From Candidatus Omnitrophota bacterium (GTDB taxonomy: Bacteria > Omnitrophota > Gorgyraeia > 2-01-FULL-45-10): DNA of 64,000 bases. The stretch lies in the NCBI GenBank assembly GCA_030695905.1, contig JAUYOL010000043.1, positions 194,561 to 258,560 of the forward strand, read 5' to 3'. The notes under the pieces were generated by a model. The model saw only the letters and a program-made list of their open reading frames with translations. It was not told the origin of the DNA and searched no databases. The position numbers were made by a program, and so were the translations under genes. Positions 3,535-45,497 of the stretch are shown here, piece by piece; position 1 is the first letter of the stretch; every line of letters starts with the position of its first letter.

Positions 3535-3539
3535 TATGG

Positions 3540-3965
3540 CTAACCGCTTATGTACTTGTTCAATAATGCCATCGCTTTTTCGTTGTCACTGGTCTGGAGC
3601 ACCATTCTTGAAGAGCCTTTGGTATCGCATGTGCACGGAGTTATATATGTATATTTTATATCTATGTTGTTCTCTTTCATCTCTGTGGCCACTACCTTAA
3701 ACGCGCCGGGTTTATTTTCCAGATCGACTAAAAGAACCTCTGTCTCTTTTACCATCTTATACTTCTTTTTCTTAAGCTCATTGATAATAACCAGATTTGC
3801 ATTCGTAATAAGAAAGACTTTGCCGGTGATGCCCGCTTCATAACCAAGGACGGCCTCGATATTTATACCTTTATTGGCGAGCATCATGGCGACGTCGGCC
3901 AATATACCGACCTTGTTCCTGGTCGTTATCGTTATCTCTTCACCTATCATGATGTTCTTTATCAT
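3540..3965 (-). CDS. ACT domain-containing protein (tandem ACT-like halves)
   Basis: 141 aa. The VGILADVAMMLANKGINIE pattern is typical of ACT regulatory folds. No catalytic domain. Confidence 0.55.
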   Translation of the reverse strand: MIKNIMIGEEITITTRNKVGILADVAMMLANKGINIEAVLGYEAGITGKVFLITNANLVIINELKKKKYKMVKETEVLLVDLENKPGAFKVVATEMKENNIDIKYTYITPCTCDTKGSSRMVLQTSDNEKAMALLNKYISG

Positions 3966-3975
3966 AATAGCTCCT

Positions 3976-4413
3976 TTACTTGATTGCCTGTTGTTCCTCT
4001 TTCAGGGCCTGGGACTGGTCCGGGCCCTTTAATTTTTCCGATATCTTCTTTGAAACAAACGCGGCGAGATCCGCGTTGCCGGAAGCGACATCTACCTGCG
4101 ACTTATCAGCCTCCCAGGCCGTAACCAGTATCCCGACCTGCGTCGTATCTATAGAAGAACGGAACGAGCCCTGCAGATTATCGGCTACTATAAATTTCTG
4201 CTTCGTATTTTCACGGACAATCGCCTTCATATCGGAAAGCATCTCTTTTATTTTGGCAACACACACATCGCTTGATATATCATATTGCTGCGTTTGCCTG
4301 GTCTTGGAATTTTTCACGTCGGCGATCGATATGCCCAATATCTCCTGCCTCAACTGCGCACCAGAACATCCGCACAATCCCAAAACCAGCAGTATCGCTA
4401 TTATTTTCTTCAT
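3976..4413 (-). CDS. lipoprotein. The ORF caller extends it to 4509, but the likely true start is MKKIIAILLVLGLCGCSG at about 4413
   Basis: Lipobox LGLCGC after a short positive n-region. The longer caller ORF overlaps the cimA 3' end out of frame. Confidence 0.55.
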   Translation of the reverse strand: MKKIIAILLVLGLCGCSGAQLRQEILGISIADVKNSKTRQTQQYDISSDVCVAKIKEMLSDMKAIVRENTKQKFIVADNLQGSFRSSIDTTQVGILVTAWEADKSQVDVASGNADLAAFVSKKISEKLKGPDQSQALKEEQQAIK

Positions 4414-5999
4414 TTTTTTGAATCCTTTAACAGTTTGTATTCTATAGAATCGACAAGGGCGAACCAGGATGCTTCGATAACGTTTTCTGACACTCCAATG
4501 GTCCACCATGAATCATCTTTATCCTGCGACTGAATGAGAACGCGCACGCGCGCGGCGGTGCCCTCTTTCTCGTCCAGGACCCTGACCTTATAATCGATGA
4601 GATGCATCTGGGCCAATCGAGGATAGAATTTTTTAAGTGCTTTACGCAAAGCGCTGTCAAGCGCGTTTACAGGCCCGTCGCCAAGCGATGCGGTGTGCTC
4701 GAGCTCCTTACCCACTTTAAGCTTAATTGTCGCCTCACTCAACATTTTGCCGCCTTTATTCTTCTCCATGATTACACGGAAACTCTCAAGCTCAAAAAAA
4801 TCCTTGAATGTCTTCATTACGCGCTTTATCAGAAGTTCGAGCGAGGCTTCGGCAGCTTCAAAATGATAGCCGCGGTTCTCCATCTCCTGCAGAACTTTTA
4901 AGATCGCCTTCGATTTTTCCGCGTCTTTGCCCAAGTCGAGATTAAGATCCTGCGCCTTCTTGATAATGGTAGACTTGCCGGATAGTTCGGATATCAAAAG
5001 CCGCCTATGGTTGCCCACTCTGGCGGGATCGACGTGTTCATAAGTCTTTGGATTTTTCAAAATGGCATTTACGTGGACACCGGCCTTATGGGCAAACGCG
5101 CTATTCCCCGCGAAAGGCTGGTTGTCCTGTAATTTCATATTGGAAATTTCAGCGACAAAGTGGGCTATTTCGGTTAACTCCCTTAACGCAAAATCGGATA
5201 CGCAATTAATGCCGAGTTTCAGTTTAAGGTTAGCGATGATCGAAACAAGGTTGGCGTTCCCGCACCTTTCGCCATAACCGTTGATGGTGCCGTGCGCCTG
5301 GACGCAGCCGGCCTGAATAGCGGCTACGGAATTCGCTACAGCCATTTCGATATCATTGTGCGCATGTATACCAAGAGGTGTTTTAATGACCAGCTTAACC
5401 TCTTTGACTATCTCAAATACCTGGCTCGTTATAGTGCCGCCATTTGTATCGCACAAAATGATCCTCGCCGCGCCCGCGTCTTGGGCGGCTTTTAACGTCT
5501 TTAAAGCGTATTCTTTATTACCCTTGTAACCGTCAAAAAAGTGTTCGGCATCATAAAACACGGTCTTACCTTTTGACTTCAAGAATTTAACGGAGTCCGA
5601 TATCATCTTAAGGTTTTCGCCCAGATCGACCTTAAAGACGTCCCTTACATGAAGATCCCATGATTTGCCGAAAATAGTTACATATTTAGTACCAGCTGAC
5701 AAAAGTCCTTTCAGAATCTTATCAGAGCCAGCCTTGGATTTTGCGTAACGCGTAGAGCCAAACGCGACAATATGCGAATTCTTCAGCTTAAGGCTCTTCG
5801 CCTTCTTAAAAAATTCCATATCTTTAGGATTAGCTCCGGGCCAGCCCCCTTCGATAAAATCCACGCCAAGCTCGTCGAGTTTTTCACAGATCTTTAGCTT
5901 GTCGGCGACAGAAAAGGAGATGCCTTCGGATTGAGCGCCATCCCTTAAAGTCGTATCATAAAGTTCTATCTTGGCCATCTGATCCTCTTTAAATTCCAA
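4410..5999 (-). CDS. cimA: (R)-citramalate synthase / LeuA-family alpha-isopropylmalate-synthase-like enzyme
   Basis: 529 aa. N-terminal LYDTTLRDGAQSEGISFS (HMGL-like TIM barrel, with DGAQ rather than the LeuA DGEQ) and a C-terminal LeuA-dimer regulatory domain. The length fits the CimA subfamily. Confidence 0.7.
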   Translation of the reverse strand: MEFKEDQMAKIELYDTTLRDGAQSEGISFSVADKLKICEKLDELGVDFIEGGWPGANPKDMEFFKKAKSLKLKNSHIVAFGSTRYAKSKAGSDKILKGLLSAGTKYVTIFGKSWDLHVRDVFKVDLGENLKMISDSVKFLKSKGKTVFYDAEHFFDGYKGNKEYALKTLKAAQDAGAARIILCDTNGGTITSQVFEIVKEVKLVIKTPLGIHAHNDIEMAVANSVAAIQAGCVQAHGTINGYGERCGNANLVSIIANLKLKLGINCVSDFALRELTEIAHFVAEISNMKLQDNQPFAGNSAFAHKAGVHVNAILKNPKTYEHVDPARVGNHRRLLISELSGKSTIIKKAQDLNLDLGKDAEKSKAILKVLQEMENRGYHFEAAEASLELLIKRVMKTFKDFFELESFRVIMEKNKGGKMLSEATIKLKVGKELEHTASLGDGPVNALDSALRKALKKFYPRLAQMHLIDYKVRVLDEKEGTAARVRVLIQSQDKDDSWWTIGVSENVIEASWFALVDSIEYKLLKDSKK

Positions 6000-6006
6000 A
6001 TCACAA

Positions 6007-7236
6007 TTATTTCTTCGCTTTATTTAACCTGAACTTTGCGTGAATTGCCCTTACGGCTGCTTCGCCCATATTCTTTTTTACAACGCATGATATCTTTATT
6101 TCGCTGGTAGATATCATCTCTATATTGATGCCTTCCGCGGCCAGGGCTTCGAACATATCTGCGGCAACACCGGAGTGGCTTCTCATTCCTATACCGACTA
6201 TAGAAACCTTAGCGATATCCTTATCCACGGTAACATCACCCGCGCCTACCTTCGCCGAAACTTCTTTCGCGCATTTTATCGTCTTATTGAGCTCGGTACC
6301 CATAACGGTAAAAGATAAGTCGGTCGCGCCCGTCCTCGAGACGTTCTGGATGATCATATCGACATTGATGTTATTTTTGGCTATATACTTGAATATTTTG
6401 GCCGCAATACCCGGCTTGTCCGGAACATCGCAGATAGTGACTTTTGCCTCGTCTTTATTTAACGCCACACCGGAAACCACCATATGCTCCATAGCCTTTA
6501 CCTCCCTGGAAATTATAGTACCTGTCTTTTCGGAAAAACTCGACCTTACGTGTATGGGGACGCCAAACTTCATCGCGAATTCTATTGAGCGCGGCTGCAG
6601 CACCTGGGCGCCCAATGAAGCGAGCTCAAACATCTCTTCATAACTTATCTTCTCTATCTTTCTTGCGTCTTTTGCAATTCTTGGATCCGTGGTAAATACA
6701 CCCTCGACATCGGTATACATCTCACACATCTTCGCGTTCAAAACTTTCGCAAGCGCGACAGCGGTAAGATTGGACCCTCCGCGGCCTAAAGTGGTTATAT
6801 CCTGGTTAACGTTCATGCCCTGGAAGCCGGCGACTATTACTATCCTGCCTCTTTTAAGCTCTTTCACTATTCGCTTGGCGTCAATATCGATTATGCGCGC
6901 CTTAGTATAGGAGTTATCGGTGATGATCCCTACCTGGGAGCCCGTAAAAGATATCGCGTCTTTACCCAGCTTATGGGTAGCCATGGCCAGAAGAGCGCAT
7001 GACACCTGCTCGCCGGTAGACAAAAGCATGTCGAGCTCTCTATCGGGCGGGTTCATAGAGATCTTCAGGGCCATATCCATCAGATTATCCGTGGTATCGC
7101 CCAATGCGGATACTATGACAACAACATCGTATCCGGCCTTAGCCGTCTTGACGACTCTTTTCGCGACATTCTGGATCCTTGAAATATCCGCGACGCTCGT
7201 CCCGCCGTACTTTTGAACAATAATGCCTTTAGACAT
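6007..7236 (-). CDS. lysC: aspartate kinase
   Basis: 409 aa. N-terminal KYGGTSVADISRIQNVAKRV kinase motif and two C-terminal ACT domains. Confidence 0.9.
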   Translation of the reverse strand: MSKGIIVQKYGGTSVADISRIQNVAKRVVKTAKAGYDVVVIVSALGDTTDNLMDMALKISMNPPDRELDMLLSTGEQVSCALLAMATHKLGKDAISFTGSQVGIITDNSYTKARIIDIDAKRIVKELKRGRIVIVAGFQGMNVNQDITTLGRGGSNLTAVALAKVLNAKMCEMYTDVEGVFTTDPRIAKDARKIEKISYEEMFELASLGAQVLQPRSIEFAMKFGVPIHVRSSFSEKTGTIISREVKAMEHMVVSGVALNKDEAKVTICDVPDKPGIAAKIFKYIAKNNINVDMIIQNVSRTGATDLSFTVMGTELNKTIKCAKEVSAKVGAGDVTVDKDIAKVSIVGIGMRSHSGVAADMFEALAAEGINIEMISTSEIKISCVVKKNMGEAAVRAIHAKFRLNKAKK

Positions 7237-20640: not shown

Positions 20641-21063
20641 CTATTGAATATTCTCTAACTCTCTATTCAGGTCTTTTAACTGCAGATTCATGAACTTCAA
20701 CAAAACTACTTTGTCCAGATATTCGAGACTAAGAGGCTTGGTTATATAATCGTTTGCGCCTAATTCCATGGCCTTCTTCATCACATCATCGTCCTTAACG
20801 CCTGTAACCATAATAATGACGACATCCTTATCAATCTCTCTTATCTTCTCAAGTGTTTCGATGCCGTCCATGCCCCTCATGTTTATATCCAGCAGGATAA
20901 TCCGGGGCTTTTCCTTTGCCACGATCTTCAGGGCCTCTTTGCCGTTTAACGCGTTGAATACCTCATAATTACGCGCGGTAAAGAACTCATAAAAAAATGA
21001 GTCGATACCCATCTGGTCATCGACAGTCAATATTTTACAAATCGGCTTTTTGGTTTCCTTCAT
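20641..21063 (-). CDS. single-domain response regulator (CheY-like receiver)
   Basis: 140 aa. Acidic pocket DD, phospho-acceptor Asp in ILLDINM, conserved T in MVTG and K in YITKP. No output domain. Confidence 0.85.
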   Translation of the reverse strand: MKETKKPICKILTVDDQMGIDSFFYEFFTARNYEVFNALNGKEALKIVAKEKPRIILLDINMRGMDGIETLEKIREIDKDVVIIMVTGVKDDDVMKKAMELGANDYITKPLSLEYLDKVVLLKFMNLQLKDLNRELENIQ

Positions 21064-21090: not shown

Positions 21091-24000
21091 TTATGCTGCA
21101 GTAAGTAGTTCGAGCAAGCGCTTATTTAGTTTAGGTATGTCGTTGACAGGCGCTGAAGCGGCTTTGGGCAGGTCAAAGATAAGTCTGCGGGCAAATTCTT
21201 TCGGATCATCCGATATTGCATCGGGCGGATTGTCAAATGGCTTGCCTGCCATGACGGAGTATATTCTCAAAAGTGCGGGCAGGCCGTTATCTGAATGCAA
21301 TGCTCTCAAAGCCGCCACAATGCCTTCCAATTGTATAAAGTCTTCTCCTTTAAATATAAGCATCTTTATATCTTTGTCTTCGGGAACCAATGCGAGATGT
21401 TCCTCGATAGAGAGGGCTATATCAACCATTGCGTTTGTATTTTCGGCGCGAATCTTTTTTATTGCTTCACTAATGGATGTTCCGCTCTCCAATATCCATA
21501 CTTTTTCAGACACATTCTTATTATCTCTAAAAGCCTTATTAACGCGCGTAATAAAACTGCCTTGCTGCTGCTCCAGCGGTATTACACCCTGTTCTATGAT
21601 GTGCCATAATACTTTATTTTCGGAAATAGCAGGCTGTATCTGCATGTTTATTTCATGCAAAATTGCCGCCCTAACCAACGCCCTGGAGATCTTTGCCTCA
21701 CGCTTTGCCAATTCGCAAGTAACAACATTTAATAATGTCCTCGTATAATCTACATCCTCGCCGATCATCATATCGGTAAACCTGTAATAATCAGGCTTAT
21801 TTTCAATCGGTTCAAGCACTCCAAGCGCAACGAGTCTTTTGGCTTCGGATTTATCGAGCGGGATGCCGCCATTTCTATTTAGCGCCGCTTTCATTAATTT
21901 GTCGTTATCTCTTATCGCTTTCATTACTTTTATCGACCAGCCTCTAACACGATTATAGACTTCACCCGATTCGCCTTCGCTCATTCTGCCCATGCTGACC
22001 AATAGTTTCAAAAGATATCTACCCTTGGCAGAACGCTGCAGTTTACGCCGAGCGCTGTCTAACAACTGCTGAATCCGCCTGCAGCTCACCTTGTATTTTC
22101 TACTCAATTCTTCTTGCGTGCTTGGCTCATTGCCAAAAAGTCCATAATACCCAATAGTCACTTCGCGCTGTCTATCAGTAAGGATTGACATCGCTGACTT
22201 TACAGCATCTCTCATTACAGATTCCTCTTCAGCAGCGGATGAAGGCTCTTCCGATGCCTCCACTTCCATTAAATTCATATCTTTTCTATTTAGGGGCATT
22301 TCTGTCACACGCCTATCACGGATTTCTGCCACATCAAGATAGTGGCCTAACGCGAGGCTGGAACTTCTTATTTCTTCTAAATCTGAGAATTTGTTGTTCA
22401 AAGTCCACACAAAACCCGGATAGCGTTTCTCTATATACTGCCTGAAGGTGAATATGCCGTCTTTTGTTAACAATTCCTTTTCTTCCATATATATTCCATA
22501 AAGATACTGCAACCTTTTTACTATACGCGCCTCGGTCCAGAATGGCTTGCCTCGACTATAATGAGTCGTATCCCAATTTTCTTCAGTGGCCTCCCCAGTA
22601 TCAACCGGAGCCTCCCCGTATCCAACATCAGCAACTCTTGTCAGCACCTCTTCCGCTTTGGCCCGCTCTATATCACTAAGATCGCTCCCATCCGGTTTCC
22701 CGGGCGTAAGACCACCTAAAAATTCATCAAGCTCATTGGGTCTATCTTGTAACAATTCGAATGCCGCAAACAGATCCAGCGCTTCCATTGCTTTTGATTT
22801 CGCTTCTTTGTATCTGCCATCATTGAATGCTCTAACCGCTTCACTTATCAAATCATTTACATATCCACCCGTCCATCCGTAAAGACTGTTCCTTTCTATG
22901 GGTCTTCCCACCAGCGAACCTTCGCCGCGAAGAGCAACTTCGCGTATTTCGGGAGAATCATCTTCTACCCCGAGTTCTCTCAATTTCTCACATATTAATC
23001 GCGGCGTTGCGTTTATATGATCTATATCCCAAAACCCCTTTCGTACGGTCGGGATCCAATGCTTTGCCGCTGAAATCACAACAGCTGGCACTCCTCGTAA
23101 CAGGGCCAAATGAAAAATAGCTGTATCAATAGTGACAACCCCTTCTGCCTGAGAAACAAAATCCAGCACTTTTCCCCTGTCCTTGAATTTTTTTACAATT
23201 AATTTCGGTGAGCCATGGATCCTACTTCTCACGGCATTTTCTATTTTTTGTGTTTCCCGCGCTTCATAAGAACTGGTACCGCTATTAAGCGCGACAACAA
23301 AACCTTTATCGATTAACTCCAGGATGGCCCCCACCCAGAGCTTCCTAAGCTGCCCGGATAGCTCTGCGTTAGTCCAGGAATGAGGATTAACAAAGATAAG
23401 GCCTTTCTGGTAATCTTGCCTGGGATAAACGATATTTACATCAGCTGAATTTAGACCAGCCAGGGATATATTATTTCTGGTAACCGAATAAATATCGCGC
23501 CTGTCCGGCTTATTAGATAACAATATCTGGCTAAATCCGAAAATAGACAATCGACTCACTGCTTTGAATTTTAAATTTTTCCCAAAATCAATAAAAACAT
23601 CGAATCTCTTATTTTTTAGAAACTGCTCTGATTCTTCATGAGATACATACCTGACCCTTGGGTCCATATTTTTAATTAATTCCGGCGCATAGGTAATAAC
23701 GGATATTTCTTCTACATCCGGCCAGGTATTTAGTATCGACGCTATGGTTAAAGGCAGCGAAACAATAGCCGAACCCCACGGTGAAAAATATTCATGCACT
23801 ATGGCAACGGATCTGACGCTTTTTATACCAGAAATAAGTTCTTTACATTGCGAGTAACTGTTAAACCCATCTAAATCTAAGGTTGTCGTCTTAACATTTT
23901 CATTGATAGTCTGTTCCTTTGGCGAATCCTTAACCGGCGGTGCGATACTCGGATTCGATTCGAGATGTCTGCGCGCGACATCCTGCACTTCCCCTGTCGT

Positions 24001-27000
24001 AGCATGGGCTTTTAATCTTGAAAGTTCTTCAGAAATTTCTGCTATTTGTGCACCATCCATATTATCAGCAGCATGATAATTATCGCCTTCTTGAACAATA
24101 AGACCGGCGCTGACAAGCTTACTTAAATCTTTTCGTGCCGTTGATACGGCGATTTGTCTCTTTCCGCCATTAGTTTCTATCATGACATCACCGCACAATC
24201 TATCGAACGGCACCCATCCTCTTTGGTAGTTATTTGTAAGCAGATCGAAGAACGTTGCGACATGTTCTGGAGCATGCGATGGCTTTACTGCTTCTTTAGC
24301 AGCCATCATTGCCCCCACAGCCTTCTTCAAGTTGATAAATTCACAACCCTTCGGCCCGACATGAATACTGAGTCCATATTTAAGCAAATCTTCTGCTCTT
24401 ATTATCCGCTTTTCAACAGGAATCCACTCTAAACCTTGTTCATCAAGTCTAAAACCTTCTTTTACATAATATGTGTTTCCCATATCAGCAGGTTCAACCT
24501 GTGAGTTAACTATCCTTTTCATATCAAATGTCGTCCACCCGTCCTCGAACGTAACATTAAGCGCGCCGATCACCATATCGTTGTCTCCGAAGCGCGCAAG
24601 TCCTATGGCATGCTCGGGCCTGTCTGTTTCAAGATAGTGATATGCTCCGTCGCTGAAGTTCGCATATAAAGCAGGGAGTGAGAATAGTTTTTTTCGGACA
24701 TCCCTTTTAGCAGGATCCGCATCCTCCATACGTGGGACGGGCGATGACTTCTCCTGAGCATTTCGATACTTGTGCTGGCTTCCATATATCTCTCCATTAA
24801 ATATTAAATTGAACCCAGGCATAAATGTATACATAAAATACAGCAGATTTCTATCCTGATAACTTAACATGGACCATGGGTCGCCGAAATCAAAGGCATC
24901 GTGTTCGGGCCCAAGATAGATAAAATTATCACGTATATCGGCAGGCATTGTCTCCGTGCTGCGCAAATACGAAATTAGTGCCTGGAGCCTGGAGGGGTCC
25001 AGTGGATCCATCAGGGCCTCTGTAGCATAATTCCTGCATTCCCATCCATAGAACGAAGCATCTCTTCCTTTTGCAACCGCCAGGAGATCTCTATATCTTT
25101 CAAATCCTTCAAACATAAAGAAAGCATAAGGATTTGTTTTACGGACTGCTTCAACAAATTGGGAAGAAAGATTATTGCTGACTTCTATATGCCAGTTATC
25201 TTTTATCCTGTCCGGGAACGTTGCAAGCGCGGTACCTACCCGCATTCCGTCCACACCTTTGCTAAGCCAAAACCTTCCTGTCTCTATCGCATCCCTGACA
25301 ACATCCGGATGCGAAAGATCCGGCTGGGCCAATGAACACCACCTACGGGGATAATCTGTTTTGAGGCTTACGAGGTCGGTCGCAGAAACTAAAAAAAGCG
25401 CTGACTCATCAGGGATGATTATGGCTGGGGCAACATAGCTCGCCCCCATCAGACCTTTTCGTATCTCATCGTCAGGCCGACGGTATGGTATTTCCCTGCC
25501 GTCCACATTTATCATTCCCTCGTGCTTCAATTCACGTGGGTCCATGTTTTTTAATTTGGCTGAAATCTTTTCACCTAATTCTATTTTTCGGCGAAGTTCA
25601 TTTGGCTGTATCGTTTGCCCGCGGAACAGCTTCGGATCCCTATCCAGCCCATAATTTCCATCACTGACATTGGTGTATAAATATCTTTCTGGATAGGACT
25701 TGCATAAAGGGCTGGACTTGGCGACATGCTGATTCGCTATCCAATCAACAATCACCATAAGCCCGACACTGTGCGCTTTTTTAATAAAATCTTCCAATTC
25801 TTTAAAAGAACCTGCCCGTTTATCTATATTTTTAGGATCGATAATTTCAAAAGGGCTGCCTGTATTTTCAATAAGCCCCAGCAGATACATGTATTTAACG
25901 CCAGAGTCCGCCAGGAATGATAATTCCTTGACTGCGGATTTCAAACCGGACATGCCTGTTGTTACATCATAATAGTCGCGAAGCACCATTTCATATATGG
26001 TCTTTGTATTTCTTTTCTTTCTTATTGCGGGCAGGTAGACGTCATGCGCATATCGCCTCTCCATCGCAACTGCGGTAACAAGCTCATTGGCCCTTAAATA
26101 TGAATTTCGCATCAGATGCTTCCACTTGCTTTTGCCCTCTTCATAAAAAAGCCTTGAAGATATCTCACACTTCGCAAATATATCCGCAGGGGCTTCGTGA
26201 TAAAATTTTTCGTTATCTGCCGCAAAACCGTCATCTGTTTCTTTTGTATAAGAACCAATAAAGAAACCGCTTCCCCCACCTGTCGTCTCATCGTAATCAA
26301 CTATCCATTCGACCGGGCCAGCGCCTTTAATGGCTATATTCACTCCGCCGTTTTCACCCGCACGTCCATCGGAAGTACCCGCAGCTTCTTCGAGAGGCCG
26401 GGGATTGGTTATACATAGATCGCAACCTATTGCCTGCATCTTAAGAAGCTTCGCGTCAGAGTTGGGCACATAGACAAATCTCCCATTGAATTCCGGTATA
26501 TCATTTGCCCAGTGCCGAAATTCCTGAACCCAGAATGGCATATATTCAGGACCGCCTACAACTAATTGCATGCCCAATCCATATACTTTTTTACGCCGGC
26601 CATTATCAAATATCTTGCTAAGATTGGATTCCACGATCCCTTTATTGTAGGATTGCGCTAAATCCGGTATGTCTCGGAACCACAGCGTTTTCAATTCGTC
26701 CATTGTGAAAGATTTATCTTTATCCGCGGTGAGAATATGGACCAAAAATCTTAGCATGGGATACTGACTTTTATAATCCACCAGTCTTCTCACTTCCCAC
26801 CCGGTAAGTTTATTTGGATCGAGCTTAACACCGGTCCTAATCTCGATCTCTGCAAAGGCTTCTTTTTTGCCATTTTCATGGATCTGCCACAGGTCTTCCT
26901 CACTGGGAACACCCTTCTTATCTTCAAATGCTTTCAGCTCGTCTGACTTCCATGTTTCGCCCGAACCATTCAGGACACCTACCACCGGCTTATCAAATTC

Positions 27001-28587
27001 GCTTCCGTACAGGTTCCTGAATAGCCTTTCGGTTGCTTTTGCATGCTCGTTGCTGACCGCATTTATAACATCGGCTAACTTCATCGCAGCATAACAGAAG
27101 TCAACAACGCCATTCGGCCTCAAAAATGCCGATCTTAGCTGAGCTGCTTTCTTTTTGGGCAGACCTATTACATACATCATCCGGTCCGCATTACTCTTGA
27201 CCGAAGCGGGCGAAAATGTCTCAAGGCCCGCCGGAACCAGCGTATGATTGGTATATACAATGGCGGTATTATTATATGATTCGTCTGCCCTCATCTGCGC
27301 CGCTGCTACAACTGTATGAGCTTCGTTAAGATGCAATATATCCGGTTTGATATGCATTTTTTTCATAAATGCATACACCGCCTTGCCGAATACTATCTCC
27401 TGGGTGAACCGGTGGGCCCTGTCATCTGGATACAATTCATCAAAAACCTTTGACATGAAAATGTAATCTGTTGCACCGCCCCTGCTTAACTTGTATACTT
27501 CTACCATAACTTTTGGATTATAGCGGTCCTCTTCGTCCTCTGTCCTGGCTTCAGGGTCTTCATCCCACGCACGGACCATGATTGCATCACCATTCACAGA
27601 AACCTTTTCCAGTATCCCTCTTTTTATCAGCTCCTCATAACTTACTTTTACCTTTTTACCATCCTTCCTTAGATGAGAGTAGCCTATCTGCGCGCCGAGA
27701 GCATTTATGCCTATTGCGGCCATGCCTTCGAGCTTGTCCCCGAAATATGCGCCAAGCCCGCCCTTAGTATTAGCATTCTGCGCTTCGTATCCTGCAAATT
27801 CCGGGATATTACCTTCCAGAGAAAGGGATAACACCGTCTTACCTTTTAACTCCGGAATATTTTGCGCTATCCAATTTTCTGTAAATTTACCTCCATTGCT
27901 CGCCGCAATATTAATATCATTATCATCTCTGTCTAATCCGTGTTCACTGTATAGTACATAGATATTGTCCAGATCTATAGAGCCTTTTACACTCTCGTAT
28001 ATCTTTTTGACTCGGGGGGTCGCTTCCCTGTCAACTTGGGCCGCAAACTTTCTCGCTTCGTCATGAGTGGCAGGATCTAAAATCCACCCCCTCATCTCGG
28101 CATATGTCTTCCCAAGCTCGAGGCGCTTGCTTTCCCATCTTGTTATTTTGTTCTTTTCATGGTTTCTTAGGGTGGCATTATTAAAATATCTTTTATCTAT
28201 ATAAATAATGGGCACGCCTGCCTGACGGCCCAATCCTATATGGGCGAGCTGGCCCGTATCTTTTGCCAAATTCTTAATAGCGACTAAAATGATTTTTTGA
28301 GTTTTATCAAGAACTCTTATGGTCTCGGCATCATCAACATCTTCCGGCTGGACCAATTTAAGCTGTGGGATTCCACCGGGCGGAAGCTTGGACTTGATAT
28401 TATTATTGAGGGCAGCATGGGATAGTTTTGTATATCCTGCTATATACTCGTCAGAGAATTGCTTCTGAGTTATTCGAAGCTGTGGGGCGAGTGCGAATGC
28501 TATATCATTACAAAAAAATAGACATACTATTGCCATTGTGATTACTCTTAGCAGCAATATATGCCTTACTTTGTATTGGATTAACAT
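21091..28587 (-). CDS. giant 2498-aa multidomain protein: N-terminal signal/anchor, GT35 alpha-glucan-phosphorylase-like, GH13 alpha-amylase-family-like, GT9 heptosyltransferase-like and sigma-70 region-4-like HTH modules
   Basis: One uninterrupted 7497-nt ORF. Ordered by-eye motif matches: KGGLGAYFGDKLEGMAAIG, HLNEAHT, YTNHTLVPAGLE and EEAAGTSDGRAGENGG (GT35); GVKYMYLLGL...AHSVGLMVIVDWIANQH, GVDGMRVGTA and GPEHD (GH13 regions I, II, IV); VVTIDTAIFHLALLRGVPAVVIS (GT9 C-terminal motif); LTDRQREVTIGYYGLFGNEPSTQEELSRKYKVSCRRIQQLLDSARRKLQ (sigma-70 region 4). Confidence 0.85.
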   Translation of the reverse strand: MLIQYKVRHILLLRVITMAIVCLFFCNDIAFALAPQLRITQKQFSDEYIAGYTKLSHAALNNNIKSKLPPGGIPQLKLVQPEDVDDAETIRVLDKTQKIILVAIKNLAKDTGQLAHIGLGRQAGVPIIYIDKRYFNNATLRNHEKNKITRWESKRLELGKTYAEMRGWILDPATHDEARKFAAQVDREATPRVKKIYESVKGSIDLDNIYVLYSEHGLDRDDNDINIAASNGGKFTENWIAQNIPELKGKTVLSLSLEGNIPEFAGYEAQNANTKGGLGAYFGDKLEGMAAIGINALGAQIGYSHLRKDGKKVKVSYEELIKRGILEKVSVNGDAIMVRAWDEDPEARTEDEEDRYNPKVMVEVYKLSRGGATDYIFMSKVFDELYPDDRAHRFTQEIVFGKAVYAFMKKMHIKPDILHLNEAHTVVAAAQMRADESYNNTAIVYTNHTLVPAGLETFSPASVKSNADRMMYVIGLPKKKAAQLRSAFLRPNGVVDFCYAAMKLADVINAVSNEHAKATERLFRNLYGSEFDKPVVGVLNGSGETWKSDELKAFEDKKGVPSEEDLWQIHENGKKEAFAEIEIRTGVKLDPNKLTGWEVRRLVDYKSQYPMLRFLVHILTADKDKSFTMDELKTLWFRDIPDLAQSYNKGIVESNLSKIFDNGRRKKVYGLGMQLVVGGPEYMPFWVQEFRHWANDIPEFNGRFVYVPNSDAKLLKMQAIGCDLCITNPRPLEEAAGTSDGRAGENGGVNIAIKGAGPVEWIVDYDETTGGGSGFFIGSYTKETDDGFAADNEKFYHEAPADIFAKCEISSRLFYEEGKSKWKHLMRNSYLRANELVTAVAMERRYAHDVYLPAIRKKRNTKTIYEMVLRDYYDVTTGMSGLKSAVKELSFLADSGVKYMYLLGLIENTGSPFEIIDPKNIDKRAGSFKELEDFIKKAHSVGLMVIVDWIANQHVAKSSPLCKSYPERYLYTNVSDGNYGLDRDPKLFRGQTIQPNELRRKIELGEKISAKLKNMDPRELKHEGMINVDGREIPYRRPDDEIRKGLMGASYVAPAIIIPDESALFLVSATDLVSLKTDYPRRWCSLAQPDLSHPDVVRDAIETGRFWLSKGVDGMRVGTALATFPDRIKDNWHIEVSNNLSSQFVEAVRKTNPYAFFMFEGFERYRDLLAVAKGRDASFYGWECRNYATEALMDPLDPSRLQALISYLRSTETMPADIRDNFIYLGPEHDAFDFGDPWSMLSYQDRNLLYFMYTFMPGFNLIFNGEIYGSQHKYRNAQEKSSPVPRMEDADPAKRDVRKKLFSLPALYANFSDGAYHYLETDRPEHAIGLARFGDNDMVIGALNVTFEDGWTTFDMKRIVNSQVEPADMGNTYYVKEGFRLDEQGLEWIPVEKRIIRAEDLLKYGLSIHVGPKGCEFINLKKAVGAMMAAKEAVKPSHAPEHVATFFDLLTNNYQRGWVPFDRLCGDVMIETNGGKRQIAVSTARKDLSKLVSAGLIVQEGDNYHAADNMDGAQIAEISEELSRLKAHATTGEVQDVARRHLESNPSIAPPVKDSPKEQTINENVKTTTLDLDGFNSYSQCKELISGIKSVRSVAIVHEYFSPWGSAIVSLPLTIASILNTWPDVEEISVITYAPELIKNMDPRVRYVSHEESEQFLKNKRFDVFIDFGKNLKFKAVSRLSIFGFSQILLSNKPDRRDIYSVTRNNISLAGLNSADVNIVYPRQDYQKGLIFVNPHSWTNAELSGQLRKLWVGAILELIDKGFVVALNSGTSSYEARETQKIENAVRSRIHGSPKLIVKKFKDRGKVLDFVSQAEGVVTIDTAIFHLALLRGVPAVVISAAKHWIPTVRKGFWDIDHINATPRLICEKLRELGVEDDSPEIREVALRGEGSLVGRPIERNSLYGWTGGYVNDLISEAVRAFNDGRYKEAKSKAMEALDLFAAFELLQDRPNELDEFLGGLTPGKPDGSDLSDIERAKAEEVLTRVADVGYGEAPVDTGEATEENWDTTHYSRGKPFWTEARIVKRLQYLYGIYMEEKELLTKDGIFTFRQYIEKRYPGFVWTLNNKFSDLEEIRSSSLALGHYLDVAEIRDRRVTEMPLNRKDMNLMEVEASEEPSSAAEEESVMRDAVKSAMSILTDRQREVTIGYYGLFGNEPSTQEELSRKYKVSCRRIQQLLDSARRKLQRSAKGRYLLKLLVSMGRMSEGESGEVYNRVRGWSIKVMKAIRDNDKLMKAALNRNGGIPLDKSEAKRLVALGVLEPIENKPDYYRFTDMMIGEDVDYTRTLLNVVTCELAKREAKISRALVRAAILHEINMQIQPAISENKVLWHIIEQGVIPLEQQQGSFITRVNKAFRDNKNVSEKVWILESGTSISEAIKKIRAENTNAMVDIALSIEEHLALVPEDKDIKMLIFKGEDFIQLEGIVAALRALHSDNGLPALLRIYSVMAGKPFDNPPDAISDDPKEFARRLIFDLPKAASAPVNDIPKLNKRLLELLTAA

Positions 28588-35735: not shown

Positions 35736-37124
35736 CTATTTATTCAACACCTTATTGTAGACGTTCATATACTCTTTTGCGGAAGCCTCCCATGAATAGT
35801 CCAGGCTCATCACGTATTTTACAAGGCTCATCCACAGCGGCTTATCTTTATAAACCGTGAGCGCCTTCTTAACTGCCGCAAAAAGATCTTCCGACTTAGG
35901 TTCTATAAACGTAAATCCGGTGCCCTTTCCCGTTCTTGGGTTAAATTCTTCTACCGTATCTTTCAACCCGCCTGTCTGCCTTACAATAGGGATCGTCCCA
36001 TACTTAAAACTTATCATCTGGCTCAATCCACAAGGCTCATATCTCGAAGGTATAAAAAACATATCCGATGACGCATATATCTTTTGAGCTAACACCGCGT
36101 CAAATTTCAGGCTTATCGAAGCGCTGGACGGATATTTTTTCGCAATCTTTTCGAATATAATGTGGTATTTGTTGTCGCCCGTACCGAGCAGAACGAACTG
36201 CGCCTTCATATTAAGGACCTTATCTATTATGTCAGCTACAAAATCCGCGCCTTTCTGTTCCGCAAGGCGGGATATCATGCCAAACATCGGTATATTCCTA
36301 TCGACTTTGAGCCCCATCTCCTTCTGGAACATCTCTTTATTCAGATATTTATCCTGCAATGAGTCGACAGAATACTTTTTAAATATTTTGGGATCTTTCT
36401 CGGGGCTCCAGAGGTTATAGTCTATACCGTTTAATATTCCATACAGCGCATTTTCGCGGTTCTTCAGCACGCCCTCCAGCCCGCAACCAAATTCGCGCGT
36501 AAGTATCTCTTCGGCATAAGTCTTACTCACTGTGCTTATAGCGTCCGAATATACCATACCGGCTTTCATCAGATTTACTTTGTCATAAAATTCAAAATAA
36601 TCTATGTTAAATAGCGCCCAGTCAAGCCCCAGCTTTGGATATTCCTCCTTCGGAAATACCCCCTGATAAGCGAGGTTGTGTATAGTGTACAAAATTTTCG
36701 TATTTGCGAAAAAGGAATCGTACTTATATATCGTATTTAAATATACCGGGACCAGCGCGGTCTGCCAGTCATTACAATGAATAACATCGGGAGCGAATTT
36801 TTCCTTCTTACACCTTTCTAATATTTCGCGTGAGAAGAATACAAACCTGTCGAGGTTATCTTTATAATCGCCGAATTTGTCGCCGTATAATTCTTTCCTG
36901 TTAAAATAATCATCATTCTCTACAAAATATACCTTAACATTTTTTCCTATCGTCGCTGAATCCCCGACAACCTTCACAGACGCGTATTTAGGCATGATAA
37001 CCCTGACATCAACACCGCATTCCTCCAAAGCAAGCGGCAGACTGCCGGCGACATCAGCAAGCCCTCCCGTCTTGGCAAACGGCACCACTTCGCTTGAGGC
37101 CACCAATACTTTTAATTTTGCCAT
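35736..37124 (-). CDS. glgA: glycogen synthase (ADP-glucose type, GT5)
   Basis: 462 aa. MAKLKVLVASSEVVPFAKTGGLADVAGSLP (KTGGL motif) and a GT-B C-terminal half. Confidence 0.9.
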   Translation of the reverse strand: MAKLKVLVASSEVVPFAKTGGLADVAGSLPLALEECGVDVRVIMPKYASVKVVGDSATIGKNVKVYFVENDDYFNRKELYGDKFGDYKDNLDRFVFFSREILERCKKEKFAPDVIHCNDWQTALVPVYLNTIYKYDSFFANTKILYTIHNLAYQGVFPKEEYPKLGLDWALFNIDYFEFYDKVNLMKAGMVYSDAISTVSKTYAEEILTREFGCGLEGVLKNRENALYGILNGIDYNLWSPEKDPKIFKKYSVDSLQDKYLNKEMFQKEMGLKVDRNIPMFGMISRLAEQKGADFVADIIDKVLNMKAQFVLLGTGDNKYHIIFEKIAKKYPSSASISLKFDAVLAQKIYASSDMFFIPSRYEPCGLSQMISFKYGTIPIVRQTGGLKDTVEEFNPRTGKGTGFTFIEPKSEDLFAAVKKALTVYKDKPLWMSLVKYVMSLDYSWEASAKEYMNVYNKVLNK

Positions 37125-39909: not shown

Positions 39910-39939
39910 ATTATATAGCATATACCTAAAAATTGTCAA
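39910..39939 (-). promoter_or_regulatory. near-consensus sigma-70 promoter (TTGACA-18-TATAAT) about 75 nt upstream of polA
   Basis: The minus-strand sequence reads ttgacaatttttaggtatatgctatataat. The -35 element overlaps the stop codon of the upstream BNR gene. Confidence 0.4.
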
Positions 39940-41630
39940 GAAGATTTTTTGCTGGATTTGCTGGATTTTCTTATATGATCCGAAAGGTAGTTTCCTGTAA
40001 GATCGTCTATAGAATGGGTCAATTCCTGCAATCTCAGCTCCTTTTCAAACCTTATATTCATATCTTTATAGGGATTGGCCATCAGCTCAAGCTGAAGGCG
40101 TTTACGCTCATAATAAGCGCGCCTCAGGTCGTCCAATATATCGTTTCTCAGCTGCACCATAAGCCGCGAGCGCACATCTATATTGGTCTGGTCGTCACTC
40201 CAGATGAGGTCGCCGAGTTCCCACGATACCGAAACACTCCACCCGTCAGATGTATCATCGGGCCCTGACACGACATAGTCTTTCGTGGCGCTTGTATATA
40301 TATCGTACGTATCGGAACGGCTGTTGTCGGCCCCCAAAGAGACCTTTGGCAATAAGGCCCTTGCCTTTGCTTCAGACCGCCACTTCTTTATCTTTTCGGG
40401 ACTCACTTCGGCATACTTTATCGCTGCTTGCTGCAATTCCTTATATGTGGGCTCGCCGTCAAATATCACCTTAAGGGTATTTAAGCTCTTATCTATATCC
40501 GGATAATCATCCATAATGTAATCACCGCGCTGAATACTGTATAGGCCATTATCAGTGACCGCAAATATGGTATTTTCGTCGTCACTTCCGAATATCAGCC
40601 GGCTCACACTCGTGCTCTTCGCGATACCTTTGTATAATTCAAGCCAGCGTGACTTTTCCGCGTCAAATTCAAACACACCCTTATATGTAGCGCAATAGAT
40701 TCTTTTGTTTTTCGCCGAAATGAGTATATGGTTTATTCCCCCTACTAACCCTTCGCGCGAAAGATCCTTCCATGCCTTGCCCTGGTCATCACTATACTTT
40801 ATCTCTTTAGAATAGCCTATATATACCCTGCTTCCGTCGATAGCGATAGTTTTTATCGAAGCATCTGTCTCGTATTCATCTTCTGTTGTATCCTGCGGCT
40901 CATCCGTTTCGATTCTTTCAGAGGCGCTTCTTACAAAAATTCTCTCCCAGTTCCCGCCATCCGCTTTCCTTATATGCAGGCCCGATTCCGTCCCTGCATA
41001 CATATACTCTTTGTTCAAAGCCAGGCAGCTTACTGACATATTCTTAAGAGCGCCGCTTATATCCTGCCAGCGCATTCCAAGATCCTCGCTGGCAAATACG
41101 CCTTTTTCAGTGGCTATGATAATCCGGCTGCGATTATGCCTCGAAAGCTCGATGCAGGTTATATTATTCTTATCCGGCATAATTGTCCTAAAAATATTTA
41201 TCCATCGCTGGCCGTCATCATCGGATCTGAATAGCCCTCTTCTTGTACCTAAAAACATGGCCCTGCTTCTTCCCGCAACACAGGTAATCTGGTTATTTCC
41301 GCTTTGAGGCAGTGAAAAAACAGGCTCCCACTTCTGCTTCACATCTTTTGTCCTGTATAGCGCGCTCTTGGTCGCTATATATAGGGATTCCTTATTAAAA
41401 ACAGCGTCTTTTATTTCCGAATTTTTAACGGCTCCTTCCCTGGCCACCCAGGCATCCTGGGCGTTTATAGCGCCAAAATTCAGAAAAGAAATAGTAATAA
41501 CTACAACGGATAACATAATAATCTTCTTCACGATATCTTCCTCCTTGCCTGCCGGAAGGCAGGCCTTTCGTGGAGCTTCACAATACCATTTATTTGATGT
41601 TTTGTCAATATTTATTTTAATATTTATCAA
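39936..41630 (-). CDS. secreted BNR/Asp-box repeat (beta-propeller, sialidase/Ycf48-like) protein. The caller start at 41630 is a TTG. The likely real start is MLSVVVITISFLNFGAINA at about 41519
   Basis: Repeated SxDxGxxW Asp-box motifs (SDDDGQRW, SEDLGMRW, SDDQGKAW, TKDVKQKW, RKADGGNW). A signal peptide begins at residue 38 of the caller ORF. Confidence 0.6.
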   Translation of the reverse strand: MINIKINIDKTSNKWYCEAPRKACLPAGKEEDIVKKIIMLSVVVITISFLNFGAINAQDAWVAREGAVKNSEIKDAVFNKESLYIATKSALYRTKDVKQKWEPVFSLPQSGNNQITCVAGRSRAMFLGTRRGLFRSDDDGQRWINIFRTIMPDKNNITCIELSRHNRSRIIIATEKGVFASEDLGMRWQDISGALKNMSVSCLALNKEYMYAGTESGLHIRKADGGNWERIFVRSASERIETDEPQDTTEDEYETDASIKTIAIDGSRVYIGYSKEIKYSDDQGKAWKDLSREGLVGGINHILISAKNKRIYCATYKGVFEFDAEKSRWLELYKGIAKSTSVSRLIFGSDDENTIFAVTDNGLYSIQRGDYIMDDYPDIDKSLNTLKVIFDGEPTYKELQQAAIKYAEVSPEKIKKWRSEAKARALLPKVSLGADNSRSDTYDIYTSATKDYVVSGPDDTSDGWSVSVSWELGDLIWSDDQTNIDVRSRLMVQLRNDILDDLRRAYYERKRLQLELMANPYKDMNIRFEKELRLQELTHSIDDLTGNYLSDHIRKSSKSSKKSS

Positions 41631-43331: not shown

Positions 43332-45497
43332 TTATTTCTGTGATGATTTTACGGTTTCCAACACCTTCGACAATCTCTTCGTAAATGAGCCCATCATAGC
43401 CTTCATCTTCTCTTCAAGTAGTTTCTTATTCGGATCTATGTATTGTTTGCGGTACTTGGCTTCCTGCTGAAGTATATACTCTTCCTCGAAGCCCTTCTTC
43501 TCCATCCTTCTTATCTTATCGAGTATCTTATCCACTTCATTGGGTTCGAGCTTAGACAACTCCTGTTCCATCATATTCTTGGAGAGAATGTTGTTGAGCT
43601 GAAGCAAAGCAATATTCTTTGAGATTATCTTCTTCATATCATCATAATACGGCTTTACCGACTCCTGATACTCGAGAATTATCTTGCCCTTCGATGTATT
43701 GAGTTCGGAGAATATGTTCTTCACATTGGATACATCGCCATCCTTCAATAGATCGGGAATGGCTTGTGCTATTAATATGGCTGCCACAGCTTGAAGCAGA
43801 TCGTCTGATGCTTTCTTTAGTTCGGGTGAGCCGGATTCCTGCTCCTGTCTTTTTACTTCATTCAGCAATGCCGTCATCACATCGAGCATAAGCCTCTGGT
43901 CCTGGGTAGGATTTTTGAGTATATTGGCAAGTTTTGCGGCGATATCCATCTCCTGAGCGCTTACCCCGGCCTGAGGGACAGCTAAAGCTGATCTACCCAG
44001 CGCATCATCCACTATTCCCGCAAGTAACTTAGGGTCAACTGCACCCTGAGACCCTCTTTGTAATGCTCCCTTATTAGCCAAAAGACCCTTAAATATTGAG
44101 GCGAGACCGTTAGCTCCTAATGCTTTCCCTGAGTCGATACTTCCAGGATATAAAACCGACTCCAAAAACAACTTGTTGTCATCGAGCCTATCATTATTGA
44201 GAAATAACGTATTGGAAGTAGATACTGATGAAGTATTGGCTAATAAGCTGCTGGAGCCGGTCTCAAGGTTCGGCGCCGTCTTGGTACTTGCCATGGATAT
44301 GGCGGGGGTATAGCTGCCGTAAGAATAAGACAAAAGCCTGCTGTCTGCTTCGCTGGCGAAATAATCTCCGCTGGATGACAAAGACAGCCCGCCATTCAGG
44401 GAAATGCCATAAACGCTATTATAATTATTATCCGTAGAAATTACGGTTGACATCGCTCCGGACGTATTCACCGTCATAGATGATCCGGGAATAGACAGGA
44501 ACATGTATTGCTGATATATGCCGGTTACACTCACCCCTATCCCCGTATTAAAATCATTATCCTCAAGCGTGATAGATGAACCATTGACACGTATTCCCGA
44601 ATCAGCGGAAAGGCCATAATATCCCGTAAAGTCTCCAGCATTGAATGTATTATTGCTTATAACCAGATCTGAGGATCTGTCAATGTGTATTCCTGCATAA
44701 CCATCTTCCCCATACACTGAAGTACTGGAAACATTGAATGTGAATCCGTCAATCTCTGTGAGGTTATCGATATTCTCCGCATACATGAAACCGTTTATAA
44801 TAGTCGGGGTATTTTCAAGATCTCTTTCTCCGCTTTCGCTATATCCGCCGTAAAGACTCACGCCGTTTTTAATAACCAGCGGATCAGCGACATTGCCCCA
44901 TTCATACATGTAATATGCTGGATCGTATATGCCTCCTTTTACGATTACTCTGTCTCCCTCACCGGCTATATCTATAGCCTCTTGTATCGCGCCTTTGCCT
45001 ACATCATCAAATCCCGCGTATACATACTTTTGCCCATCAATGACTTCGGATATTAACCGGCCATCCTCATATACCTGGTCTGTGCCCGAGCCTATATCCA
45101 CATCATAGCTTACCGCCGCTTCGGCAACCTCGGTTGAAGTTGATGCTGTTTCCGCATCTCCGTCACTATCCCCCCTGGCACCGGTCTTCTTCTTTAGCTC
45201 GAGCGTAGGCTTATCCATAGCGTCTTCTTTGACCTTGTCAGATAGGTTGGTATCCATATATTCGGCTGAAGTATTGGGCAAATTCTTCTTACTGCTTATC
45301 TGGCTGATTATAGCGTCTGTCTTCTGTTTGGAGGCATTAATATATCCCGGAGAGAATACACTAGACTGGCCATTGGACAGACGATCGCTGTTGTCGTCCG
45401 CGGCGGAATACGAGCCCTGGACAAAAATTATAGATATGGCTAAAATAATAGATATTATTAACATTTTTTTCATGACTACGCCCCTTAAGTTGTACAT
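43332..45497 (-). CDS. secreted parallel beta-helix (PbH1) repeat protein, paralog 1
   Basis: 721 aa. Signal peptide; central repeats with ISNNTF/LEDNDF-type PbH1 motifs; conserved helical C-terminal domain shared with the neighbouring gene. Confidence 0.6.
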   Translation of the reverse strand: MYNLRGVVMKKMLIISIILAISIIFVQGSYSAADDNSDRLSNGQSSVFSPGYINASKQKTDAIISQISSKKNLPNTSAEYMDTNLSDKVKEDAMDKPTLELKKKTGARGDSDGDAETASTSTEVAEAAVSYDVDIGSGTDQVYEDGRLISEVIDGQKYVYAGFDDVGKGAIQEAIDIAGEGDRVIVKGGIYDPAYYMYEWGNVADPLVIKNGVSLYGGYSESGERDLENTPTIINGFMYAENIDNLTEIDGFTFNVSSTSVYGEDGYAGIHIDRSSDLVISNNTFNAGDFTGYYGLSADSGIRVNGSSITLEDNDFNTGIGVSVTGIYQQYMFLSIPGSSMTVNTSGAMSTVISTDNNYNSVYGISLNGGLSLSSSGDYFASEADSRLLSYSYGSYTPAISMASTKTAPNLETGSSSLLANTSSVSTSNTLFLNNDRLDDNKLFLESVLYPGSIDSGKALGANGLASIFKGLLANKGALQRGSQGAVDPKLLAGIVDDALGRSALAVPQAGVSAQEMDIAAKLANILKNPTQDQRLMLDVMTALLNEVKRQEQESGSPELKKASDDLLQAVAAILIAQAIPDLLKDGDVSNVKNIFSELNTSKGKIILEYQESVKPYYDDMKKIISKNIALLQLNNILSKNMMEQELSKLEPNEVDKILDKIRRMEKKGFEEEYILQQEAKYRKQYIDPNKKLLEEKMKAMMGSFTKRLSKVLETVKSSQK
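43340..43850. repeat. about 500-bp direct repeat, near-identical to 45512..46010 (the 3' coding ends of the two beta-helix paralogs)
   Basis: Direct comparison of the two DNA stretches shows only scattered mismatches over about 490 bp. Identity drops abruptly further into the genes. Confidence 0.8.

Follow-up and report, generated by a model that had tools for sequence, protein, structure and literature searches.

What kind of protein is encoded by a single 7.5-kb reading frame that joins glucan-enzyme-like, glycosyltransferase-like and sigma-factor-like modules, and on which side of the membrane would such a protein act? The question is raised by a 64,000-nucleotide stretch of a Candidatus Omnitrophota bacterium genome (contig JAUYOL010000043.1, positions 194,561 to 258,560), referred to below as the window, in which one uninterrupted open reading frame (ORF) with an ATG start occupies positions 21091..28587 of the minus strand and encodes 2,498 aa. 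An earlier reading of this DNA, made from the letters without database searches (the sequence-only reading), had seen in it a glucan-metabolising or glucan-binding megaprotein with a built-in DNA/RNA-polymerase-interacting module. The explanation favoured here, and held with modest confidence, is that the protein is probably a small, bookended member of the modular 'multi-enzyme' class of Omnitrophota, serving as an exported glycan-binding or glycan-processing scaffold. Its architecture is unique and the protein itself is unstudied; the kind of protein to which it belongs has already been described.

One gene with two conserved ends

The gene is a genuine single gene of Candidatus Omnitrophota bacterium. 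Its unusual architecture could raise the suspicion that an assembly or sequencing error fused separate glgP-like, amylase, waaF-like and sigma genes, and nothing else was found in favour of this view. Against it, an identical 2,498-aa product, with identical neighbours, is encoded on an independently assembled Logan contig (SRR13727529), which backs the contiguity of the ORF claimed earlier. Furthermore, an ortholog from another sample keeps the frame that runs from the N-terminal (N) module through the GT35-like, GH13 and winged helix-turn-helix (HTH) modules to the C-terminal (C) module. Hidden Markov models (HMMs) of the family-specific N and C modules match both ends of the query in the same frame (aa 2-233, E=1e-83, and aa 2199-2498, E=2e-132), and GC content and GC content at third codon positions (GC3) differ only modestly from module to module. 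A fused-gene artefact is very unlikely indeed.

The protein is catalogued at NCBI as MDP3792060.1, on a 268-kb contig, under the title 'MAG: glycogen/starch synthase [Candidatus Omnitrophota bacterium]'. This entry is the same sequence minus 17 N-terminal residues (2,481 aa), its start being Met18 and the part upstream of it corresponding to window positions 28537-28587 (minus strand). Homologue N-termini read ML(I/V)(K/Q)(Y/H)K.R.., like the query start MLIQYKVRH..., and this conservation indicates that the long start is the better one and that the NCBI start is too short. The long start also gives back a positively charged n-region. The analysis thereby corrects the start codon of the database record and, as discussed below, its name.

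The hydrophobic N-terminus noted in the sequence-only reading (signal peptide or membrane anchor) is present, and it is the sole hydrophobic segment of the protein. Over 41 N-termini of the family, the n-region carries a net charge of +2.5, the hydrophobic core spans ~13-16 residues (mean Kyte-Doolittle value of 2.2 over 15 residues), and the core ends in an AxA-type motif (AFA, AWA, SWA, GFA and others) followed by a conserved LAP motif. These N-termini look like cleavable Sec signal peptides. The leader pattern of the query would fit the 'SP-only' class, which, according to Nielsen & Lui (bioRxiv 10.64898/2026.06.07.730766), makes up ~9-13% of Omnitrophota long proteins.

The extent of the family was defined by an exhaustive HMMER search with query aa 1431-2498 against 1.84 billion representatives, giving 381 matches, 150 of which were listed. 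This search replaced a word-indexed homologue search with the same segment, which returned no matches and missed even the identical protein; a word-indexed profile search for the C module yielded no more than 8 proteins, all short, its index missing C-terminal matches in long proteins. Among the matches listed, nearly all cover just the final 190-300 residues of the query, and the C module forms the exact C-terminus in 130 of 137 matched proteins and ends no more than 2 residues away from it in 136. Proteins carrying it range from 95 to 4,873 aa and share the C-terminal tail pattern [LFIM][LIM]x[AS]A, most commonly LLTAA. The N module also stands at the start of 35 of the 137 C-module proteins. 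Between these ends lies a varied cargo: a GT35-like module alone or with GH13, GDE, GT4, phosphoglucomutase and phosphofructokinase, and also transaldolase, GNAT, histidine phosphatase, HATPase and response-regulator domains. The query has the leader and N module at its start and a C module with the same tail pattern at its C-terminus, as the family definition demands. The C module was found in 17 GTDB species genomes, 12 with records labelled Omnitrophota or Omnitrophica and 5 labelled 'uncultured Planctomycetia' bins; as the latter are taken to be mislabelled Omnitrophota, proteins bookended by N and C modules have so far been seen in Omnitrophota only.

Among PDB sequences, profiles of the N and C modules had no match, and their HMMs found no second copy of either module within the window. 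The Rossmann-like domain of the C module (aa 2325-2430, window ~21298-21615) has many invariant polar residues over 13 sequences (K2325, H2329, E2332, Q2341, N2350, E2361, D2389, E2421 and R2428), making an active or ligand-binding site likelier than a purely structural domain.

The favoured explanation can be laid out along the chain. A Sec-type leader and a ~200-aa N module open the protein, a variable cargo string follows, and a ~300-aa C module, composed of a winged helix, a Rossmann-like domain and an invariant ...LLxAA tail, closes it. The cargo of the query comprises the GT35-like and GH13 pair, a winged-helix connector and an exchangeable cassette made of the GT9-like module, two further segments and a sigma region-4 unit. 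The protein would be exported over the inner membrane and, once in the periplasm or at the cell surface, would be a scaffold that binds and perhaps modifies alpha-glucans or glycans, a role already proposed for Omnitrophota multi-enzyme proteins of far greater length. Its HTH units would then serve as connector or interaction modules, and not as a transcription factor.

Several observations concern the behaviour of the end modules elsewhere. Tandem arrays, in which C-module-ending genes directly precede genes that begin with the leader and N module, span several Omnitrophota contigs (L008, positions 3001-3822 and 3940-6801; L003, L021, L027 and L048). In one protein of 4,322 aa (P0003), residues ~3390-3440 contain the junction ...IEHNNRLILQKLQQAA|LSPELRLTQKEFEEEY (...LQKLQQAA|LSPELRLTQ), which resembles a C-module tail joined straight to a second N module lacking the hydrophobic leader; the C HMM matches weakly there, over its final 33 residues only. 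That two bookended genes might have been joined in frame in this protein, as a polyprotein or concatenation, is suggestive only. The core of the N module (HMM positions ~61-240, without leader and LAP) is also seen hundreds to thousands of residues inside long metagenome ORFs (L032, L036, L037/L038, L041, L046 and L050), indicating a mobile domain whose N-terminal position is not strict; no C module was found upstream of these internal cores.

A bolder proposal, which we regard as improbable, would see in the leader with its N module and in the C module (...LLxAA) the handles of a route, peculiar to Omnitrophota, for export, processing or delivery, whose cargo here would be a pseudo-enzymatic glucan-binding pair and a sigma region-4 decoy directed against host glycogen and RNA polymerase. 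If true, a polymorphic set of cargo cassettes would travel by this route, and N-cargo-C units fused in frame could be the building blocks of the giant proteins of the phylum.

The glucan-related modules

The GT35-like module carries, in order, the motifs KGGLGAY (275), HLNEAHT (419), YTNHT (445) and EAAGTSDGR (734), that is, all the GT35 active-site motifs GGLG, HLNxxH, TNHT and EAxGT. The model TIGR02094 ('alpha-glucan family phosphorylase') matches with E=7e-35 (120.9 bits, below its cut-off of 191.7), PF00343 with E=1e-3 (17.9 bits, below its gathering score of 27) and the model of the Thermococcales maltodextrin phosphorylase with E=7e-28; the top solved structures are alpha-glucan family phosphorylases and MalP. 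Homology to GT35 is significant, yet the curated thresholds for GT35 membership are missed. Identity as a GT5 glycogen synthase, which the NCBI name suggests, was considered and rejected. The name stems from a partial match to PF08323 (E=9e-12, 45.6 bits, profile positions 69-222) that does pass its Pfam threshold, and TIGR02095 gives 30.5 bits vs a cut-off of 328. The canonical glgA of the window (35736..37124) matches PF08323 with 288 bits over the full profile, plus PF00534. Taken with the TIGR02094 and structure matches, this makes the query module GT35-like and not GlgA-like. At least here, the 'starch synthase' (PF08323) matches reported in Omnitrophota long proteins thus correspond to a GT35-like clade without the catalytic lysine.

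That clade is well defined. Throughout 40 homologous GT35-like modules, the motif EASGTxxMK, which holds the pyridoxal phosphate (PLP) lysine, reads EACGTSDQR, with Arg for Lys. The query reads EAAGTSDGR, its Arg742 standing at the position of the PLP Schiff-base Lys; C736A and Q741G, both lying in the sugar/phosphate pocket, are its only departures from 86 near-invariant columns, 84 of which are kept. The GT35 assignment of the sequence-only reading therefore stood as to the fold and the four ordered motifs, and did not hold as to the curated thresholds and the PLP lysine. The Arg-bearing clade may still be catalytic, since the glycogen phosphorylase of Methanococcus maripaludis, with Thr for the motif Lys, is active on glycogen without PLP (bioRxiv 10.1101/2024.09.29.615707).

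The GH13 assignment was borne out: PF00128 matches with E=5e-10 (39.5 bits vs a gathering score of 22), GH13 structures are numerous among the PDB matches of aa 861-1430, and regions I-IV are identified as DWIANQH (948), GVDGMRVGTA (1111), FEGFE (1159) and GPEHD (1226), where relatives read DWxANQH, GLDGFRIDAA, FEGFE and GPEHD. The nucleophile Asp, present in 29 of 32 relatives, is Gly1118 in the query (D1118G), with 114 of 127 highly conserved GH13 columns kept. The nearest ortholog (P0002) has Asn at this position and HY instead of HD, and in two further Omnitrophota paralogues the nucleophile is replaced by Val or Ala. The protein is thus a GH13-family member without its nucleophile. GH13 enzymes work by an established double-displacement mechanism, so the module should neither hydrolyse nor transglycosylate, and it may still bind glucan. 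The 'glucan-metabolising' part of the earlier claim is weakened by D1118G, the missing PLP lysine and the two further changes in the GT35-like motif, and catalytically dead modules argue for binding or scaffold roles.

These lesions at catalytic positions are also what a largely non-functional mosaic would display, born of rampant domain shuffling in Omnitrophota and made of decaying enzyme modules with no integrated function. Such a view also agrees with the confinement of the cassette combination to one cluster (among the matches listed) and with the 80% of Omnitrophota long-protein clusters that are reported to be singletons. It is difficult to reconcile with a frame intact for 7.5 kb, with the near-complete retention of conserved GT35-like and GH13 columns just described and with an orthologous locus conserved at 68% identity, and we consider it improbable.

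The exchangeable cassette and its locus

The sequence-only reading had also proposed a GT9-like fold with 'a matching N-terminal half'. With the query alone, PF01075 gives E=0.05 (13.4 bits, below the gathering score of 22), and it is matched by 7 of 11 GT9-like homologues (best E=2.5e-5). A profile of these 11 homologues matches WaaF (1psw) with E=1e-5 (1.1e-5), and hhalign relates it to E. coli WaaC and WaaF at 92-95% probability, over the C-terminal Rossmann half only. The C-terminal half of the proposal is thus confirmed by the profile and by hhalign. The N-terminal half is not, neither hhalign nor hmmsearch having aligned anything but the C-terminal half. By eye, WGS at 1604-1606 places a Ser after a conserved Gly, at most a tentative counterpart of the catalytic D13 of WaaC.

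The sigma region-4 unit was borne out. PF04545 (gathering score 24.1) scores 29.1 bits when the whole protein is searched and 35.1 bits when the segment is taken alone, region 4 of T. maritima sigmaA (1tty) matches with E=2e-6, and the alignment to RpoS and RpoD structures extends over regions 3.2-4.2. Sigma factor identity was rejected, as it had been in the sequence-only reading: region 4 is present, and region 2 (PF04542) was found with neither Pfam nor NCBIfam models, all sigma models aligning only from ~aa 2090 on. Lacking sigma regions 2 and 1, the protein is unable to make up a holoenzyme or to open a promoter. Region 4 included, there are three HTH-type units in the protein. The other two, at aa 1431-1584 and at the head of the C module, consistently match winged helices of the DeoR, GntR, MarR, HTH_11 and PaaX types, though below threshold, and the predicted helix-strand topology of the C-module unit agrees with a winged helix.

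What belongs to the core of this locus and what is exchangeable is revealed by the syntenic ortholog P0002, which is 68% identical to the query over aa 1-1565 and 37% identical over the C module. Its context, rpsP-trmD-rplS-rnhB-[gene]-moxR-DUF58-batA, matches that of the query. An unrelated helical stretch of ~290 aa replaces query aa 1566-2215 (the GT9-like module, the two segments and region 4), and the downstream response regulator is absent from its locus (L001). The GT9-like and region-4 part is consequently an exchangeable cassette and not the core function of the locus. The modules of the query cassette are found singly in other recovered proteins, at 30-53% identity. The exact domain order occurs in one 50%-identity cluster only among the matches listed from the 1.84 billion representatives. 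The earlier statement that no described protein has such an architecture is correct to this extent; on the other side, the protein was already catalogued and 'multi-enzyme' long proteins of Omnitrophota had already been described.

The neighbours were as the sequence-only reading stated. Upstream lies trmD-rplS-rnhB; downstream follow a receiver-only response regulator, MoxR, DUF58 and Bat genes, the canonical glgA being ~7 kb off. The response regulator (140 aa, window 20641-21063, minus strand) starts 27 bp past the stop of the giant ORF. Within long proteins of Omnitrophota, receiver domains are reported alongside the PF08323 sugar module, and two recovered proteins (P0038 and P0194) have a receiver domain fused to family modules. 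Scanned for promoters and terminators, the surroundings of the gene showed nothing beyond shuffled expectation.

These data bear on a quite different explanation, namely that the protein is a membrane-tethered glucan sensor on the cytoplasmic side, coupling the binding of glycogen-like glucan to transcription through its region-4 HTH, for instance as a competitor at the beta-flap or the -35 element, or as a sink for an anti-sigma partner. The close resemblance of region 4, over regions 3.2-4.2, to sigma factors of groups 1 and 2 (RpoD, RpoS), the two additional winged-HTH-like units, the ancestrally cytoplasmic nature of the enzyme families and the proximity of glgA and of the response regulator all suit it. 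A transcription-coupled role needs a cytoplasmic location, which conflicts with the leader (the n-region charge, short core and AxA motif of the family predict export or an N-in/C-out topology) and with a dispensable cassette, missing from the syntenic ortholog together with the response regulator. Moreover, sigma region 2 was not found, and region-4-like units recur in the same search, singly or up to three in tandem (P0118, P0147 and P0192), suggesting a generic building block. By eye, three of the four positions that contact bases in sigma/-35 structures differ (RERIRQ vs CRRIQQ). The glucan sensor is unlikely in our judgement. Likewise, a DNA/RNA-polymerase-interacting module in the cell's own cytoplasm, as first proposed, is disfavoured: a Sec-like leader and no other transmembrane segment would place the HTH outside the cytoplasm.

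A signal-peptide-like leader, conserved ends with highly variable cargo, cassette exchange among close orthologs and tandem gene arrays recall polymorphic effector systems, and host-dependent or predatory lifestyles have been proposed for Omnitrophota. The protein might then be an effector that an episymbiotic or predatory Omnitrophota cell secretes and that acts in or on a host cell, with glucan modules targeting host glycogen or glycans, region-4 and winged-helix units engaging host RNA polymerase or nucleic acids, and N and C modules serving as delivery or processing handles common to a polymorphic effector repertoire. A host and secretion past the inner membrane have no direct support, no secretion system was found in the 64-kb window, the operon-like gene context is of a housekeeping kind and conserved among relatives, and the enzyme modules are partly inactivated. 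An effector role is accordingly rated as doubtful.

The exported scaffold remains the preferred explanation, and several points weigh against it. Phosphorylase-, GT9- and HTH-type domains are normally cytoplasmic, and the genome has its own cytoplasmic glgA. There are no secretion genes near the gene, and related proteins of 1,540 aa start without a leader. To judge from the active lysine-less GT35 enzyme, catalysis by the GT35-like module is possible, and export is judged by simple sequence heuristics only. The coordinates of the modules are given in Table 1.

Elsewhere in the window, two adjacent ORFs of 721 and 686 aa (43332-45497 and 45497-47557, minus strand), without Pfam match at E<=1e-5, lie between signalling genes of the GGDEF/CHASE2 and GGDEF/HAMP types. 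Another ORF of 564 aa (39936-41630, minus strand) has a sub-threshold match of the Sortilin/Vps10 type (BNR-like; 32.2 bits vs a gathering score of 33).

Table 1. Modules of the 2,498-aa protein, with positions in the window and the grounds for each assignment
Feature	Residues (aa)	Window position	Strand	Basis
Whole ORF, 2,498 aa + stop	1-2498	21091..28587	-	ORF call; identical ORF in independent Logan assembly
Sec signal-peptide-like leader (n-region K6/R8/H9, hydrophobic core, AFA/LAP boundary)	1-33	28489..28587	-	Heuristic sequence features
Conserved N module (LAP..., TGQLAHIGLG, IIYID, HEKNKITRWE)	34-238	27874..28488	-	Comparison with homologues
GT35-like, alpha-glucan-phosphorylase-like GT-B module	239-860	26008..27873	-	Profiles, PDB matches, motifs
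GH13 module including C-domain	861-1430	24298..26007	-	PF00128, PDB matches, regions I-IV
Winged-HTH-like connector (STARKDLSKLVSAGLIV)	1431-1584	23836..24297	-	Sub-threshold matches to several winged-HTH families
GT9-like module; C-terminal nucleotide-sugar half recognisable (VVTIDTAIFH 1817)	1585-1880	22948..23835	-	Profiles, hhalign
Two further segments	1881-2106	22270..22947	-	35-53% identity to P0139, P0158, P0147
Sigma-70 region 3.2/4.1-4.2-like HTH (LTDRQREV 2136)	2107-2193	22009..22269	-	PF04545, PDB matches
Winged-HTH-like unit, first part of C module	2201-2300	21688..21987	-	Homologue comparison, predicted topology
C module core: Rossmann-like alpha/beta domain + terminal helix ...IPKLNKRLLELLTAA	2301-2498	21094..21687	-	Homologue comparison

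Comparison with known systems

By curated or defining criteria, the protein is not a member of the GT35, GT5, GT9 or sigma-70 families. Alpha-glucan family phosphorylases (TIGR02094; PDB 9l6i) and MalP/GlgP have GGLG, HLNxxH, TNHT and EAxGTS in the same order as the query, which differs from them by Arg in place of the PLP Lys, by C736A and Q741G and by scores under both curated cut-offs. The Methanococcus maripaludis enzyme (bioRxiv 10.1101/2024.09.29.615707) is lysine-less like the query clade; it has Thr and not Arg, belongs to another lineage and is a monomeric 60-kDa cytoplasmic enzyme, whereas the query counterpart is a module of a larger protein. In WaaC and WaaF (GT9), the C-terminal Rossmann half aligns with the query, including the nucleotide-sugar motif T-x-D-S/T-x-x-x-H; unlike them, the query stays below the PF01075 gathering score, has an N-terminal acceptor half that is not detectably homologous and lies in no lipopolysaccharide-core gene context. 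With the sigma-70 family, regions 4.1-4.2 and the 3.2 linker align, and the query is without regions 1 and 2 and predicted to be exported.

Closer in organisation are the proteins of 1,540 aa, found in metagenomes and metagenome-assembled genomes, in which GT35-like, amylo-alpha-1,6-glucosidase (PF06202) and GH13 modules are combined. One is named by NCBI as from a Planctomycetes bacterium, JGI names include 'glycogen debranching enzyme/glucan phosphorylase/glycosidase', and the group appears uncharacterised. Their GT35-like and GH13 modules are 37-45% identical to those of the query and share EACGTSDQR and DWxANQH/GLDGFRIDAA/FEGFE/GPEHD-type motifs. They differ in that the GT35-like module stands at the very start, without leader or N module, a GDE domain lies between the two modules, the GH13 nucleophile is kept, and the N, C, GT9-like and region-4 modules are lacking.

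The closest class is that of the Omnitrophota long 'multi-enzyme metabolic' proteins / Archaeovorins (West-Roberts et al. 2023, bioRxiv 10.1101/2023.11.21.568195; Nielsen & Lui 2026, bioRxiv 10.64898/2026.06.07.730766). According to these two preprints, the giant Omnitrophota proteins combine a PF08323 sugar module with GT1, PGM, ROK and receiver domains, are mostly predicted to bear a signal peptide or transmembrane segments, and have for the most part unique architectures. The word 'sigma' is absent from the main text of both. Neither the two end modules nor the GT35-like, lysine-less nature of the PF08323 matches, the lesions or the cassette swap were noted in the portions consulted, no systematic search having been made. 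Possibly new, then, are the recognition of these end modules, a lysine-less GT35-like clade to which the 1,540-aa proteins also belong, the catalytic lesions, the cassette swap and the sigma region-4 units.

Omnitrophota long proteins are a recognised puzzle, mostly of unique architecture and with no assigned function. A 2.5-kaa protein is small enough to be expressed and offers a tractable model for the building and targeting of such proteins; its end modules and cassette exchange give handles (HMMs, junctions) on how they are built, targeted and diversified. The query resembles the giants surveyed in the two preprints in its phylum, in its PF08323-marked sugar module accompanied by other enzyme and regulatory domains and in its targeting; it departs from them by its single N-terminal hydrophobic segment and by its 2,498 aa, which place it below the size classes surveyed (at least 10,000 aa for Nielsen & Lui and at least 30,000 aa for West-Roberts).

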